A DNA stretch of 64,000 nucleotides. Source: an uncultured Gammaproteobacteria bacterium. GTDB lineage: Bacteria; Pseudomonadota; Gammaproteobacteria; UBA9214. Both the position numbers and the translations under genes were made by a program. A model generated the notes under the pieces. It saw only the letters and a list, made by a program, of their open reading frames with translations, had not been told where the DNA came from and did no database searches. The DNA lies in NCBI GenBank assembly GCA_963748215.1, contig CAVVHS010000006.1, positions 608,001-672,000 of the forward strand, read 5' to 3'. Of the stretch, positions 654 to 62,709 are shown one piece after another. Position 1 is the stretch's first letter; each line of letters starts with the position of its first letter.

Positions 654-689
654 CTCGCGCACGACTACATCCCTGTAGTCGTGCGCGAG
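654..689. repeat. Perfect 16-bp-stem hairpin between convergent genes (REP-like / possible bidirectional terminator)
   Basis: CTCGCGCACGACTACA-TCCC-TGTAGTCGTGCGCGAG, flanked by GAAAAC/GTTTTC. Confidence 0.85.
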
Positions 690-2130: not shown

Positions 2131-4134
2131 TCAGCGGTACAGAAAACAGCGCACCGGGTGGCCGGGCGTGCCGTAGTCATCCGGGTAGGCACTGGCGCAC
2201 TGCGGCATGGCGTCGGGACAGCGCGGGTGAAAATGGCAGCCCGTCGGCGGACGCGCCGGTGACGGCATATCGCCTTCCAGGCGGATGATCTCGCGCCGGG
2301 CATCGGCATCGAGCGTCGGCACGGCCGACAGCAGGGAGCGCGTGTAGGGATGCTGCGGACGTTCCAGCACCTCGTTCACCGGTCCTTCTTCCACGATGCG
2401 GCCGAGGTACATGACCGCGACACGGTCGGCCAGGTACGACACCACCGACAGGTTATGGGTGATGAACAGGTAGGACAGGCCGAGCGAATTCTGCAGTTCC
2501 TTCAGCAGGTTCAGGATCTGCGCCTGCACGGACACATCCAGCGCACTGGTCGGCTCGTCGCAGATCACCAGTTGCGGATCGACCGCCAGGGCGCGCGCGA
2601 TGCAGATGCGCTGGCGCTGGCCACCGGAGAATTCGTGCGGGTAACGCTGCAGGTGCCTGGGCGACAGGCCGACCTGCGCGAACAGCGACGTCACCCGTGC
2701 CTGCCGCTGTGCGCGGGTCTTGCCGATGCCCTGCGCCACCATGCCCTCTTCCACGATATCGCCGACCATCATGCGCGGGTTCATGGAGGAATACGGATCC
2801 TGGAAGATAAACTGGAAATCCGCGCGCCGCTTGCGCAGGGCCTCGCCCCGCAGTTGCGTCAGCTCGACGCCATCGAAGCGCACGCTGCCGCCTGTCGGAC
2901 GGATCAGTTGCAGGATGCCCTTGCCCGCCGTGGTCTTGCCGCAGCCGGATTCGCCGACCAGCGCGAGCGTGCTGCCGCGCGGAATAGCGAACGACACGCC
3001 GTCGACGGCATAGACGTGCCCGGCGACGCGTTTGAAGACGCCTTTGTGAATCGGGAAATGCACCTTGAGATCGCTCACCTCGAGCAGCATGCCGTCGCGC
3101 ACCGCCTGCCTGTCGCTGCTCGCAACGGCTGGCGCGGCAGCAGTCAGTGCCGGCGCATCGATGGCCGGGTCGGCGCGGTGGCAGCGCGCATGCTGCTGTT
3201 CCGATACCGCGTTCCAGGCCGGGACGCGGGTTTTGCAATAGTCCCAGCCGACATCGCAACGGTCGGCAAAGCGGCAGCCGGTGAATTGCCGGTTCAGCGC
3301 CGGCACCGTGCCGCGAATGGTATCGAGCGCCTGCTCGCGCTTGCGCACGTCAGGCAGCGAGTCGAACAGTTTGCGGCTGTAGGGGTGAGCGGCGGCGGCA
3401 TAGAAGCGGTCGCGCCCGGCCTCCTCGACCAGCTGCCCGGCATACATGACGGCCACGCGGTCGGCCATGTCGGCGACGATGCCGAGATCATGGGTAATCA
3501 GCAGGATTGCCATGTGCATCTCCTGCTGCAGTTTCTGCAGCAGTTCCAGCACCTGGGCCTGGATGGTGACATCCAGTGCCGTGGTCGGTTCGTCGGCTAT
3601 CAGCAGGTCGGGCTTGCCGGCCAGTGCGATCGAGATCATCACGCGTTGCTTCATGCCGCCGGACAGCTGGTGCGGGTATTCGTCGATGCGGCGCCCGGCA
3701 TCGGGGATGCCGACCGCGTCCAGCAGTTCCAGCACGCGCTCGCGCGCCGCGCGTCCGCGCATTGCGAAATGCTGGCCAAGCACCTCACCGATCTGGTCGC
3801 CGATGGTCAGTACCGGGTTCAGCGAGGTCATCGGCTCCTGGAAGATCATGGAAATCCGCCGGCCGCGAATCCGCCGCATGCCGGATTCCGGCAGCGCGGT
3901 GAGTTCCTCGTCGCCGAGCCAGACATGGCCAGCGGTGATGCGGCCGATGGGTTGCGGGAGCAGGCGCAGGATAGACAGCGCGGTCATGGACTTGCCGCAG
4001 CCGGACTCGCCGAGCAGTGCGAAGGTCTCGCCGCGCCTGATGGACAGGCTGACACCGTCGACCGGGCGGATGGCATTGCTGCCGCTGCCCAGTTGCACCG
4101 TCAGGTCCTCGATTCTCAGTAACGGTTCGGACAT
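2131..4134 (-). CDS. Peptide/nickel-type ABC transporter ATP-binding protein with two fused ATPase domains
   Basis: Two Walker A motifs (GESGCGKS, GESGCGKT), LSGG/FSGGQ signatures, oligo_HPY-like C-terminal regions; start set at MSEPLL (4155 is an alternative). Confidence 0.92.
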   Translation of the reverse strand: MSEPLLRIEDLTVQLGSGSNAIRPVDGVSLSIRRGETFALLGESGCGKSMTALSILRLLPQPIGRITAGHVWLGDEELTALPESGMRRIRGRRISMIFQEPMTSLNPVLTIGDQIGEVLGQHFAMRGRAARERVLELLDAVGIPDAGRRIDEYPHQLSGGMKQRVMISIALAGKPDLLIADEPTTALDVTIQAQVLELLQKLQQEMHMAILLITHDLGIVADMADRVAVMYAGQLVEEAGRDRFYAAAAHPYSRKLFDSLPDVRKREQALDTIRGTVPALNRQFTGCRFADRCDVGWDYCKTRVPAWNAVSEQQHARCHRADPAIDAPALTAAAPAVASSDRQAVRDGMLLEVSDLKVHFPIHKGVFKRVAGHVYAVDGVSFAIPRGSTLALVGESGCGKTTAGKGILQLIRPTGGSVRFDGVELTQLRGEALRKRRADFQFIFQDPYSSMNPRMMVGDIVEEGMVAQGIGKTRAQRQARVTSLFAQVGLSPRHLQRYPHEFSGGQRQRICIARALAVDPQLVICDEPTSALDVSVQAQILNLLKELQNSLGLSYLFITHNLSVVSYLADRVAVMYLGRIVEEGPVNEVLERPQHPYTRSLLSAVPTLDADARREIIRLEGDMPSPARPPTGCHFHPRCPDAMPQCASAYPDDYGTPGHPVRCFLYR

Positions 4135-8837: not shown

Positions 8838-9101
8838 GTAGCCCGCCTTTTGCGCCAGCATCCGGGATGCTGGCGCTGGACAGGTGCGGCTGGGCGCTGC
8901 TCTGGAACGAAAGTGGTAGTTGTAGCTACCACTTGAGTGAAGAGCAAGTCCAGGCGTGACTGGACCAGTCAGAGCCCGGATAGGCTGCGGTCCGACGAAA
9001 AACTACCCTTCGGAAATTATCCTGAACATTGACAGGTACACGTTTGTTGTACAGCAGTGTATACGCGGGTCCGCGGCCGGCTGGTGCAAAAGGCGGGCTA
9101 G
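8838..9101. mobile_element. Diverged long-form copy (264 bp) of the CTAG-bounded MITE-like family
   Basis: Inverted ends GTAGCCCGCCTTTTGCGCCAG ... CTGGTGCAAAAGGCGGGCTAG; internal 8862-8981 aligns with segments of the 52777-53279 copy. Confidence 0.8.
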
Positions 9102-11302: not shown

Positions 11303-11430
11303 CTAGCCCGCATTTCTCACCGGGTTGCAGTTAACCGACATAATGAGCCGAAACCATGAAGCTAATACCCATTCGTCAACCAACAGTGTGTCAGTGGGCG
11401 GTGCCTAACCCGGTGAGAAATGCGTGCTAG
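11303..11430. mobile_element. Short-form MITE-like element (128 bp); right CTAG contains the ppiD stop codon
   Basis: TIRs CTAGCCCGCATTTCTCACCGGG / CCCGGTGAGAAATGCGTGCTAG. Confidence 0.9.
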
Positions 11431-24252: not shown

Positions 24253-24990
24253 ATGCCCTGCACCCTGTTCATTTCGGACCTGCACCTGGATCCGGAACGG
24301 CCGGCGATCACCGCCCTGTTTCTCGACTTCCTCGCGGCGCGTGCGGGTCACGCCGATGCGCTGTACATCCTGGGCGACCTGTTCGAGGCATGGATCGGCG
24401 ATGACGATGATTCGGAGCTGAACCGGGGCGTGTGCCACGAACTGGCACGCTGCGCTGCGGCGGGCACCGCCGTTTACGTCATGCACGGCAACCGCGACTT
24501 CCTGCTCGGCGAGCGCTTTGCGAAGCAGTCGCACTGCACGCTGCTCGATGATCCCGCCTGCATCGACCTGTACGGCACGCCCACCCTGCTCATGCACGGT
24601 GATCTGCTGTGCACGGATGATACCGAATACCAGGCCTTTCGGGTCCAGGCGCGCAGCGCGGCATGGCAGGAAGAACTGCTGGCGAAAACTCTGCAGGAAC
24701 GCCGTGCCATCGCCAGCGAAATGCGCCGGGTCAGCCGCGAGAAGACCGGCGGCAAGCCTGAATCCATCATGGATGTCAACGCGACAGCGGTCATCGAGCG
24801 CATGACAAGGCACGCCACGATCCGCTTGATTCACGGTCACACGCACCGCCCGGACATACACGAACTGGTCATCGACGGCAGGCCCGCACAGCGCATCGTG
24901 CTGGGCGACTGGTACGAACAGGGCAGCGTGCTCGAATGTACGCCGAACGGATGCGAGCTGGAGTCACTCGAACCGCGGCGGACTTCCTAG
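24253..24990 (+). CDS. lpxH: UDP-2,3-diacylglucosamine diphosphatase
   Basis: FISDLHL, LGDLFE, HGNRDF, HGD, HGHTH. Confidence 0.96.
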   Translation: MPCTLFISDLHLDPERPAITALFLDFLAARAGHADALYILGDLFEAWIGDDDDSELNRGVCHELARCAAAGTAVYVMHGNRDFLLGERFAKQSHCTLLDDPACIDLYGTPTLLMHGDLLCTDDTEYQAFRVQARSAAWQEELLAKTLQERRAIASEMRRVSREKTGGKPESIMDVNATAVIERMTRHATIRLIHGHTHRPDIHELVIDGRPAQRIVLGDWYEQGSVLECTPNGCELESLEPRRTS

Positions 24991-25114
24991 CCCGCATTTC
25001 TCACCGGGCAGCTGTAGACAGACATAATGAATTGAAATCACGAAAGTGATACCCATTCAGCAAACAACAGTGTGTCATCAGGCGGTGCCTATCCCGGTGA
25101 GAAATGCGGGCTAG
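24987..25114. mobile_element. Short-form MITE-like element (128 bp); both terminal CTAGs contain the stop codons of the convergent flanking genes
   Basis: Perfect 22-bp TIR CTAGCCCGCATTTCTCACCGGG / CCCGGTGAGAAATGCGGGCTAG. Confidence 0.93.
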
Positions 25115-32115: not shown

Positions 32116-32137
32116 CTGGCCCGCATTTCTCACCGGG
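32116..32137. repeat. Solo terminal repeat of the MITE family; supplies the folC TGA stop
   Basis: CTGGCCCGCATTTCTCACCGGG, 21/22 identical to the TIR; no partner end nearby. Confidence 0.8.
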
Positions 32138-52456: not shown

Positions 52457-52780
52457 ATGAAAGCACGCAACATCATCAGCGCCGCAATCCTCGCCGTGTA
52501 TCTCGCCGGCGGGATGCAACCCGTACACGCCGACAACGACATTCCCTGGAACAGCCTGAGTCGGAGCGAACAATCCCTGCTCATGAAACACCAGGGTGGA
52601 TGGACGAGCCTGAGCGGCAAGGAACAGCGCCGGCTGGTAAGTGGTGCAAGAAAGTACCTGGAGTTGCCGCCCGACCAGCGCAAGGCGGTCGAGGACAAGC
52701 GCAACCAGTACAAACGCATGTCCCCTGAAGAGCGGGAGCAACTGCGCGACAGATACAGCAAGCAGAAGAAATACCGCTAG
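52457..52780 (+). CDS. Exported DUF3106-like protein
   Basis: Signal peptide; repeated W/Y-x-x-L/M-S/P-x-x-E/Q helical units; TAG stop lies in the MITE CTAG. Confidence 0.8.
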   Translation: MKARNIISAAILAVYLAGGMQPVHADNDIPWNSLSRSEQSLLMKHQGGWTSLSGKEQRRLVSGARKYLELPPDQRKAVEDKRNQYKRMSPEEREQLRDRYSKQKKYR

Positions 52781-53279
52781 CCCGCATTTCTCACCGGGAT
52801 CCCGGAAGCTGGCGCACGACTGAAAGGACGCAGGAGGTAGAGCAACGCAGGGAGCAGTTGCCGAGGGCTCGTGTGACCGGGCGCCGCTCTGGAATGAAGG
52901 ACCCGCTCGAGGCGCAGAGCAGGGGCCCCGGCGTAGCCGGGGATGCGACCGCCGGTGGGCGGAAGATCGCTTCGAACACCACCGCGGGTCTTCGCTCCAC
53001 CGGGGGTCAGATCCCCACCGCTGCGCGGCGGGGCCCCTCTTCCGCCCCTCGAAGCGATGCAGCCGTAGCAACCACTTGAATGAAGAGGCCGCTCCCGGCT
53101 TCCTGCCTCCCGCGGCACTTGCACTTCCCTGTACATCGCAAGTACGGGTGCACGAGAACCAGTCAGGGCCGGGATAGGCGCCGCCCGATGACACACTGTT
53201 TGTTACTGAATGGGCATCACTTTCATGATGTAAATTCAGTATGTCCGTCAACAGCCGCCCGGTGAGAAATGCGGGCTAG
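52777..53279. mobile_element. Long-form MITE-like element (503 bp) with three nested insertions
   Basis: Perfect TIRs; core at 53169-53279 is the reverse complement of the short form; CCGGGAT direct repeats at 52794-52800 and 53169-53175. Confidence 0.9.
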
Positions 53280-53384
53280 GCCCGGCAGCGCCCGCACCGG
53301 GGACCGGGCCGGCGATACCGCGGGCCGACCATCTCTGGTATGCTTCGCTGCCATTTTCACGGGCACGCAGGCGACGCCATCATC

Positions 53385-54206
53385 ATGCAACCCATGCTCA
53401 ACATCGCGGTTCGCGCCGCACGCAATGCAGGCAATATCATCGTCAGGAGCCTGGACCGTCTCGACAGCCTTGCCATACATACCAAGGACCGCAACGATTT
53501 CGTGACCGAGATCGACCAGCATGCGGAACGCGAAATCATCGGCACCCTGCGCAAGGCCTTTCCCCGACACAGCATCCTGGCCGAGGAAAGCGGTACGCAC
53601 GACGGTGACGAATACCAGTGGATCATCGACCCGCTCGACGGGACGACCAATTTCCTGCACGGATTCCCTCATTTCGCCGTCTCGATCGCCCTCCGCCACC
53701 GCGGCAGGCTGGAGCAGGCGGTGATCTACAATCCACTGAGCCAGGAACTGTTCACGGCCTCGCGCGGAGCAGGCGCACAGCTCAATGACCGGCGGATTCG
53801 CGTCAGTTCCCGCAAAAGCCTGGACGGTGCCCTGCTGGGTACCGGCTTCCCCTTCAAGACCCAGCAGTATCTCGACCCCTACCTCGATATGTTCCGTGCC
53901 CTGTTTCCGGAAACTGCCGGCATTCGACGTGCCGGCTCGGCGGCACTCGACCTGGCATTTGTTGCCGCCGGCAGGCTCGACGGTTTCTGGGAGATCGGCC
54001 TGAATATCTGGGACATGGCGGCCGGTGTCCTGCTGATCCAGGAAGCCGGCGGGCTGTGCAGCGATTTTGTCGCCGGTCACGACTACCTGGAGAACGGCAA
54101 TCTGGTAGTTGGCAATCCGAAAGTGTTCGCCGAAATCCTCAAGGCCATCCGGCCGCACGTAACGCCCGAACTCGCCGCCCGTCACCTGCCCCTGCACCCG
54201 ACCTGA
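53385..54206 (+). CDS. suhB: Inositol monophosphatase family protein SuhB
   Basis: MQPMLNIAVRAAR, WIIDPLDGTTNF, WDMAAG. Confidence 0.96.
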   Translation: MQPMLNIAVRAARNAGNIIVRSLDRLDSLAIHTKDRNDFVTEIDQHAEREIIGTLRKAFPRHSILAEESGTHDGDEYQWIIDPLDGTTNFLHGFPHFAVSIALRHRGRLEQAVIYNPLSQELFTASRGAGAQLNDRRIRVSSRKSLDGALLGTGFPFKTQQYLDPYLDMFRALFPETAGIRRAGSAALDLAFVAAGRLDGFWEIGLNIWDMAAGVLLIQEAGGLCSDFVAGHDYLENGNLVVGNPKVFAEILKAIRPHVTPELAARHLPLHPT

Positions 54207-62582: not shown

Positions 62583-62709
62583 CTCGCCCGCATTTCTCAC
62601 CGGGCGGCTGTTGACGGACATAATGAATGAAATCATGAGAGTGATGCACATTCAGCAACAAACAATGTGTCATCGGGCGATGCCTATCCCGGTGAGAAAT
62701 GCGGACTAG
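62583..62709. mobile_element. Short-form MITE-like element (127 bp)
   Basis: CTCGCCCGCATTTCTCACCGGG ... CCCGGTGAGAAATGCGGACTAG; core nearly collinear with the 24987 copy. Confidence 0.9.

Follow-up and report, generated by a model that had tools for sequence, protein, structure and literature searches.

Minimal mobile cassettes with twin GGA-loop hairpins and a strong CsrA-site signature, nested in a MITE and widespread in Gammaproteobacteria

A composite MITE lies between the gene for a DUF3106 protein and a gene of the inositol monophosphatase family, and it carries two cassettes of about 50 bp, A and B, on opposite strands. These features and related ones elsewhere in the window (the whole stretch of DNA that was analysed, 64 kb long) are listed below.

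52460..52780, plus strand: upstream gene, encoding a DUF3106 protein; its stop codon lies in the left end of the host MITE
52777..53279, no strand assigned: composite host, a 128-bp MITE with 22-bp TIRs grown to 503 bp by nested inserts
52801..53168, no strand assigned: inner segment missing from the 128-bp copies, consisting of about 120 bp in common with 8838-9101 and three nested inserts
52816..52863, plus strand: cassette A, a 48-bp twin-hairpin insertion (family A), missing from the relative at 8838-9101
52820..52833, plus strand: hairpin 1 of cassette A, hexaloop AAGGAC, top stem pair broken (alignment columns 5-18)
52842..52861, plus strand: hairpin 2 of cassette A, bulged stem, AGGGA loop, with GTAG just before it (fold and alignment)
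52899..53054, no strand assigned: third of the nested inserts, a long, GC-rich hairpin of 156 bp that has no GGA loops, missing from 8838-9101
53088..53138, minus strand: cassette B, a 51-bp twin-hairpin insertion (family B), missing from the relative at 8838-9101; fold z -3.38
53340..54206, plus strand: downstream gene, inositol monophosphatase family, presumably suhB-like
8838..9101, plus strand: diverged 264-bp relative of the host that represents the empty site of both cassettes and of the central hairpin (global alignment)
11303..11430, no strand assigned: plain host MITE copy, 128 bp
24987..25114, no strand assigned: plain host MITE copy, 128 bp
62583..62709, no strand assigned: plain host MITE copy, 127 bp
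662..682, minus strand: lone derivative of family A hairpin 1 with an AGGGAT loop (22.2 bits with the family A model)

The 22-bp TIRs of the host are located at 52777-52798 and 53258-53279, and the window holds nine such repeats. The inner segment is bounded by a 7-bp direct repeat (52794-52800 and 53169-53175), and the 156-bp hairpin at 52899-53054 has no second copy in the 64-kb window. The first 18 bases of the host TIR are identical to both ends of a complete IS, annotated as IS1380 family, found on two plasmids. This IS (WP_034018616.1) has CTAG flanks at each end, and the host MITE also has CTAG at both ends. From the common ends we infer that the host is an ordinary MITE of that IS1380-family element. 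No YANGGANR motif was found on the scanned strand of the IS, which thus accounts for the host and not for the cassettes. The CTAG ends of the MITE overlap stop codons at 11303-11430, 24987-25114, 52777-52780 and 62583-62709; the copy at 24987-25114 lies between two convergent genes and supplies the stop codons of both, and a solo terminal repeat of the host MITE (32116-32137) is found at the 3' end of a minus-strand ORF. Cassette A is on the mRNA strand, 36 bases past the stop of the DUF3106 gene, and cassette B is antisense to both flanking genes. Within 52700-53400, neither promoter-like sites (sigma-70 consensus only) nor terminator-like sites were found.

Both ~50-nt sequences described in the initial annotation are present, on opposite strands. 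In the global alignment of 8838-9101 with the host, A corresponds to a 48-bp and B to a 51-bp insertion, and both can be defined as insertions because the 264-bp relative aligns end to end without either block; the boundary of B is ambiguous by one base, 53087-53137 being equally good. The motifs noted earlier were likewise found, namely three GGA (52826, 52833 and 52851) and an AGGGA loop on a bulged stem in A, and an 11/12 match to the quoted CsrA consensus together with a GGC[AGGAA]GCC hairpin in B. The proposed two-hairpin design holds for cassette B, which folds well compared with shuffled sequences (z -3.38) and has a purine-rich internal loop, but only in part for cassette A, the first hairpin of which is damaged in the window copy. 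Indeed, A does not surpass its shuffled versions in folding (z -1.09), and hairpin 1 is not formed in the single-sequence fold. The window copy has A where 115 of the 120 listed relatives have the C that closes loop 1, and this replacement marks it as a damaged twin hairpin. Cassette A scores 67 bits with the family A model, which was built with the window copy included. The lone derivative at 662-682 (minus strand) is a perfect hairpin sitting inside another palindrome. By itself, the window is weak evidence for CsrA sites: at least three GGA occur in 2.7% (plus strand) and 4.1% (minus strand) of its 48-nt windows, and the CsrA consensus is matched at 11/12 in three places over the 64 kb. Chance is removed by the family data, since 120 of the 123 scan matches listed have a common structure and helix 1 covaries.

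Cassette A matches Pseudoalteromonas replicons at 86-88% with identical ends. It is also matched inside pglX, and E. coli pglX alleles without it lack exactly 48 bp and show no duplication. This BREX methyltransferase gene thus occurs in nature both empty and filled, the cassette being in frame in the filled alleles (L003:1201-1248, L128:220-267 and L127). The ZF34 allele of pglX has an additional 30-bp deletion just upstream of the cassette. We scanned GTDB genomes for family A with the ends and linker fixed and with both loops and most stem positions left free, which yielded at least 123 matches in at least 119 loci. According to the record titles, the listed loci comprise 114 from Gammaproteobacteria, one from Mariprofundaceae, one from an unclassified proteobacterium and three from other phyla. 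Three matches (L024, L032 and L036) with non-proteobacterial titles, 0-1 of four stem pairs and no loop GGA were treated as chance and dropped as family members, leaving 120 copies. In E. coli, family A is matched in only 2 of 5426 genomes, both times in an imported pglX. The flanks of family A copies are unrelated, and tandem and self-nested copies occur. Moreover, 37 of the 120 listed sites (8 of them trivial tandems) have their exact empty junction at another place in the collected loci, whereas each of six shifted junctions gives 0-1 empty matches. As an observation apart, cassette A lies in similar non-coding flanks in two genera (L029:1057-2048 and L008:1890-2000); an IS110-family fragment upstream in L029 suggests that this flank may be an IS110 end.

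Family A has fixed ends without terminal inverted repeats and without target duplication: duplications of at least 2 bp in the flanks are found in at most 5 of the 120 listed copies, and the ends are ambiguous by at most one base. The base following the cassette is A in 113 of 119 listed cases, the next is G in 94, and then mostly a purine follows. Family A therefore inserts directly 5' of A(G)R, and the target on the bottom strand reads YCT. Among the listed copies, the target information at positions +1 to +4 is 1.67, 1.07, 0.61 and 0.32 bits, compared with at most 0.30 bits on the 5' side, and the base preceding the insertion point is C in 39, G in 36, T in 32 and A in 12 of 119. Empty sites rebuilt from the listed loci exceed control windows in self-complementarity (median z -1.62 versus -0.27; 70 loci; p 5.5e-6). 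Furthermore, another GGA loop motif is found within 45 nt of 48 of the 120 listed sites, compared with 73 of 1097 control windows. Named by eye, the hosts include REP-like and ERIC-like repeats, other GGA cassettes and family A itself, either nested or head-to-tail. The cassette is inside an ORF in 23 of 77 long loci, and 14 of these ORFs have a Pfam family. In-frame inserts of 16 codons (L021, L054, L065, L071, L023, L084, L034 and L040) are found in genes for Rep/UvrD helicase, squalene-hopene cyclase, CobN, DabA, FliH, an M23/LysM protein, DUF1015 and rotamase, and transposase genes, judged by eye, are the hosts at L090 and L110. Family A thus writes 16-residue inserts into conserved proteins such as PglX, Rep/UvrD helicase, squalene-hopene cyclase and CobN, which bears on both annotation and protein evolution.

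Given the empty sites, the unrelated flanks and the tandem and self-nested copies, cassettes A and B are almost certainly mobile, as the initial annotation had proposed. That they are chance GGA-rich hairpins or an alignment artefact in a GC-rich repeat is virtually inconceivable, being refuted by 120 structured relatives with fixed ends, by the pglX alleles and by covariation.

The loops, which were free in the scan, are strongly conserved. Among the 123 listed matches, GGA is present in loop 1 of 117, in loop 2 of 117 and in both loops of 114; for distinct listed sequences (n=86) the corresponding numbers are 83, 83 and 80. In the 120 kept listed copies, the invariant positions of loop 1 are A in 119, G in 120, G in 118 and A in 119, and the variable ones are N (T 73, G 23, A 17, C 7) and X (T 106, C 11, A 2, G 1). 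Variation in loop 1 is thus limited to the positions that RsmE tolerates (A-N-GGA-X): a stem capped by an ANGGAX hexaloop, in which N and X may vary, is a high-affinity RsmE site (Duss et al., PMC4005645). Loop 2 reads A(N)GGA(X) in 107 of the 120 listed copies, and AGGGA and AAGGA pentaloops are also strong RsmE sites (PMC4005645). Stem 1 swaps pairwise, with CTGC/GCAG in 84, CTCC/GGAG in 13 and CCCC/GGGG in 5 of the 120 listed copies, besides other combinations. Helix 1 is paired at 97.1% in the 87 distinct listed rows, and none of 500 shuffles reaches any of five covariation measures; over the whole structure, two-sided changes number 74 versus 19.9 in shuffled alignments. This shuffle control ignores the relatedness of copies; nevertheless, slid pairings score far lower. 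GGA-loop conservation with stem covariation across copies had been set as a test in the initial annotation, and both were found (114 of 123 listed matches; 0 of 500 shuffles).

The two GGA are 24-25 nt apart in all 114 listed A copies that have both, and a CsrA dimer bridges GGA sites 10-63 nt apart (PMC7652899). Loops of this kind are also recognised by RsmE and RsmQ when the hairpin is ssDNA, in the case of RsmE with ATGGA and AGGGA loops (PMC9928087), which are the two commonest loop-1 types among the listed family A copies; a DNA intermediate would thus be compatible with binding. The six inner stem pairs contain 6 G-U and 7 A-C mismatches, i.e. no RNA-type asymmetry, and folding energy, better for the top strand by ~0.4 kcal/mol, does not separate the strands; neither measure distinguishes RNA from DNA. 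Because the loops match the published Csr/Rsm recognition code, they are probably bound by a CsrA-family protein. The near-restriction of the listed loci to Gammaproteobacteria fits the prevalence of CsrA, reported to be lower in other Pseudomonadota (PMC13443453), but it is confounded by descent. A loose protein motif for csrA, which is not informative on whole genomes, has no match in the window or in the collected loci.

Cassette B represents a second cassette family. It was sought by its stems only, which gave 14 matches: 11 have the B design and 3 are chance-like matches in the window (3.3 expected in shuffles). In these 11, the window copy and 10 relatives, GGA is present in loop 2 of all and in loop 1 of 10. 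Family B also has fixed ends, no TIR and no target duplication; it usually starts with C and then has C 3' of the cassette. GTAG is missing from it. Plasmid and phage searches for B relatives returned short matches or none. A scan of the collected DNA for twin GGA hairpins, with family A removed, produced 38 matches compared with 0-2 in Markov controls. Part of these are A variants that escaped removal or chance matches, and the rest represent further families with ~25-27 nt from loop to loop. At L086:1760-1930, a twin-GGA cassette of 50 bp that belongs to a further family forms a tandem array of at least three units, and a separate copy of the same cassette nearby is interrupted by cassette A. 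In L039, a twin GGA hairpin (~3006-3073, minus strand) lies directly upstream of a tmRNA gene on the same strand.

Judged from sequence, the cassettes are real, widespread and minimal mobile elements with a strong CsrA-site signature. The interpretation in the initial annotation stands as regards mobile units and GGA loops with covariation, but is not supported as regards their role as a dispersed sponge or 3' UTR regulators. We regard it as improbable that the cassettes are maintained for the benefit of the host, be it as a dispersed CsrA sponge or as 3' UTR/mRNA-stability modules, even though their site code and spacing are perfect for it. One 3'-UTR-derived RNA, RsmU, does sequester RsmA in Xanthomonas (PMC7694677). 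In P. putida, ISPpu8 flanks and a palindromic remnant are enriched in pull-downs with Rsm proteins (PMC7937890), which would be relevant if these RNAs contain such cassettes. However, where a Pfam-backed gene lies no more than 500 bp from an intergenic copy, the gene ends pointing at the cassette have GGA on the mRNA strand in 22 cases and antisense in 20 (p 0.88), and between tandem gene pairs the numbers are 5 and 3. Copies within Pfam-backed ORFs are sense in 11 of 14 cases versus an expected fraction of 0.425 (p 0.007; small n), which would favour a role in mRNA, but this bias can stem from peptide tolerance, and one of the 11 sense copies (L074) is probably upstream of the true start. Moreover, the sites are non-orthologous and mostly inside other repeats. 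At the locus itself, where cassette B runs antisense, cassette A is damaged and neither a sigma-70-type promoter nor a terminator was found, a regulatory role is unsupported.

We tentatively favour another explanation, which as a whole we regard as close to an even proposition, if slightly short of one: the cassettes may be selfish and single-stranded, with CsrA-type loops selected at the spreading step. As non-coding mobile units of 47-51 bp, they favour palindromic repeats, including each other. Their GGA strand would fold as a single strand, either DNA or RNA, and one CsrA/Rsm dimer would bind both loops, 24-25 nt apart, and protect or fold the single-stranded intermediate for a trans-acting enzyme. 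The loops would be selected during spread and not by each copy regulating its neighbour, and if transcribed copies titrate CsrA, this would be incidental. The constraint is most simply placed at spreading because the copies are young, non-orthologous and randomly oriented, yet the spreading subfamilies have kept both loops; selection at this step also fits the absent intergenic strand bias (22:20) and the damaged window copy. Several observations weigh against this explanation. A scan of the 259 ORFs that lie within 2 kb of 77 loci, of which 180 have a Pfam family, revealed no mobilising gene (loci L088-L126, with short flanks, left out); it gave only an IS110 fragment and an IS256-type host gene. 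The G-U versus A-C comparison (6 versus 7) lacks RNA-type asymmetry. Targets starting with AGGA number 25, compared with 22.6 expected from the AGRR consensus, so that there is no sign of CsrA tethering, and targeting to GGA loops by tethered CsrA is rejected for now. E. coli has CsrA, and yet family A is matched there only in the two imported pglX. Finally, the family data come from a sample of 119 listed loci, a pattern with fixed ends and linker and a covariation control that ignores relatedness. Plasmid and phage searches found no autonomous element with cassette ends, and in the phage search the cassette itself gave short matches only. Three half-matches (H73, H41 and H54) were considered as autonomous elements and rejected, as they do not adjoin transposases.

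It is possible, though unlikely, that the loops are instead recognition hairpins for the cassettes' own mobilising enzyme, an alternative already named in the initial annotation, here a single-strand transposase of the HUH/Y1 type, as in REPs and IS200/IS605 ends, and that the likeness to CsrA sites is incidental. The absence of TIRs and target duplication, the two hairpins, the short target rule and the palindromic targets are all hallmarks of HUH systems; family A has GTAG just before hairpin 2, and the bottom strand of its target reads YCT. Loop bases are indeed read by the TnpA-REP enzymes of group 3 (PMC8266576). TnpA-REP, however, cuts CT/CA on the GTAG strand (PMC8266576), whereas C precedes the insertion point in only 39 of 119 listed cases. 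In addition, family B is without GTAG, no Y1 gene is found within 2 kb of the 77 loci, and several unrelated families, as well as clostridial TwoAYGGAY, keep one loop code, which would suit a single conserved host protein better than co-evolving transposases. We also consider it improbable that mobility proceeds through RNA, with a twin hairpin protected by CsrA being reverse transcribed at a nicked target in a SINE-like manner, primed by pairing of the 3' flank of the RNA with the target. Such a route would agree with target information that is almost only 3' and decays (1.67, 1.07, 0.61 and 0.32 bits), with head-to-tail tandems despite the rare AC target (6 of 8 listed sites with C at +2 start with ACG), with the different 3' flank rules of families A and B and with the sense bias in ORFs. 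Yet no reverse transcriptase is encoded near any locus (ORFs within 2 kb of 77 loci), there is no G-U signal (6 versus 7), the 5' ends are precise, which is partly forced by the scan pattern, and the literature search found no bacterial precedent. Selection of CsrA-type loops at the spreading step, with the nature of the single strand left as DNA or RNA, remains the reading that we prefer.

Compared with known systems, the cassettes differ from MITEs, which have TIRs and target duplications, in having neither; the host in this case is such a MITE. ERIC-type MITEs are known to carry short hairpin inserts in some copies. To our knowledge, Rickettsia palindromic elements (RPEs) do not carry GGA loops. 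RPEs are similar to the cassettes in being palindromic repeats tolerated in frame in proteins, but they are longer, ~150 bp (PMC10969869). With REP/REPIN elements mobilised by TnpA-REP (RAYT) and with IS200/IS605 ends, the cassettes share small hairpins, the absence of target duplication and, in family A, GTAG before a bulged hairpin; GTAG is fixed by the scan pattern, but most copies not selected by that pattern retain it, GCAG and GTTG being the variants. Unlike REP/REPIN, the cassettes insert into REP-like repeats and form no doublets, the CT/CA cut rule on the GTAG strand does not fit them, family B has no GTAG and there is no Y1 gene within 2 kb of the 77 loci. IS200/IS605-type elements insert 3' of a target of 4-5 nt, selected by an internal guide, without duplication; family A also causes no duplication, but its target is the short degenerate YCT and no guide was identified. 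Like CsrB/CsrC/RsmX/RsmY/RsmZ and RsmU, the cassettes have A(N)GGA(X) loops, short stems and a spacing that a dimer could bridge. In contrast to these sponge sRNAs, they have two sites and not many, no promoter or terminator was found, no Rfam family matches, and they are dispersed and mobile and do not form a dedicated gene.

The literature search, thin on subscription papers including those on ERIC insertions, found no description of the cassette families or of the insertion rule. The available text of two repeat reviews (PMC3184786 and PMC10969869) contains none either, the accessible parts of PMC5737381, PMC9788540 and PMC4383904 add nothing further on the families, and the motif name 'GGAM' has no literature match. 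Rfam searches at the cassettes gave no family and only weak miRNA-type hairpin matches, and ivy-DE scores 17.8 bits on one GGA hairpin (gathering 41.4).

The closest known system, not named in the initial annotation, is TwoAYGGAY (RF01731), in which two AYGGAY loops stand on a basal stem (Weinberg 2010, PMC2864571) and which has been proposed as a CsrA binder (Gardner and Eldai, PMC4333381). According to a recent preprint, it reaches up to 202 copies per Pseudomonas genome, is repeat-associated, has variants with extra AYGGAY hairpins and may act as a multivalent sponge that expands like a mobile element; how its mobility relates to Csr sponging is left unresolved there (Li et al. 2026, 10.64898/2026.09.22.753630). 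The cassettes likewise consist of two sequential GGA-loop hairpins with a purine-rich linker, and they are multicopy in Gammaproteobacteria and repeat-associated. TwoAYGGAY has tandem G-A pairs in one stem; hairpin 2 of family A has G-A in 25 and A-G in 16 of the 87 listed rows, in adjacent columns, the remaining rows having canonical pairs or other combinations. However, loop 1 is AYGGAY in 75 of the 120 listed A copies and loop 2 is an AYGGAY hexaloop in none, its forms being AGGA, ANGGA or AGGAN. Folds of the window copies and of the six commonest variants show no basal stem within the cassettes, although host palindromes may supply one. Furthermore, the cassettes are only 47-51 bp, they insert precisely, and both their empty sites and a target rule could be defined, features not described in the available TwoAYGGAY literature. 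RF01731 has no match in the window, in 20 short loci (E<=1), in 20 long loci (gathering) or in a B copy (E<=10). Since no model matches, loop 2 is not AYGGAY and a basal stem is lacking, we do not file the cassettes as TwoAYGGAY members; by analogy, they may nevertheless work like TwoAYGGAY. A bolder extension, to which we assign little likelihood, is that a TIR-less ~50-nt superfamily in Gammaproteobacteria needs the host CsrA dimer to mobilise, possibly via target-primed RNA as a SINE analogue. In that case, TwoAYGGAY would represent a cassette family of this kind, observed within the MITEs that host it, and new multi-site Csr sponges and 16-residue protein inserts would arise by nested insertion. 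Should spreading depend on CsrA, a mobile element that is among the smallest known would have a global regulator of RNA as its host factor. Overall, a multicopy twin-loop element proposed to bind Csr proteins is an already published concept, embodied by TwoAYGGAY; what is new is the minimal and precise insertion unit with its target rule, and the question of mobility and Csr becomes directly testable with a unit of 48 bp that has exact ends, occurs in natural alleles with and without it and follows a simple target rule.
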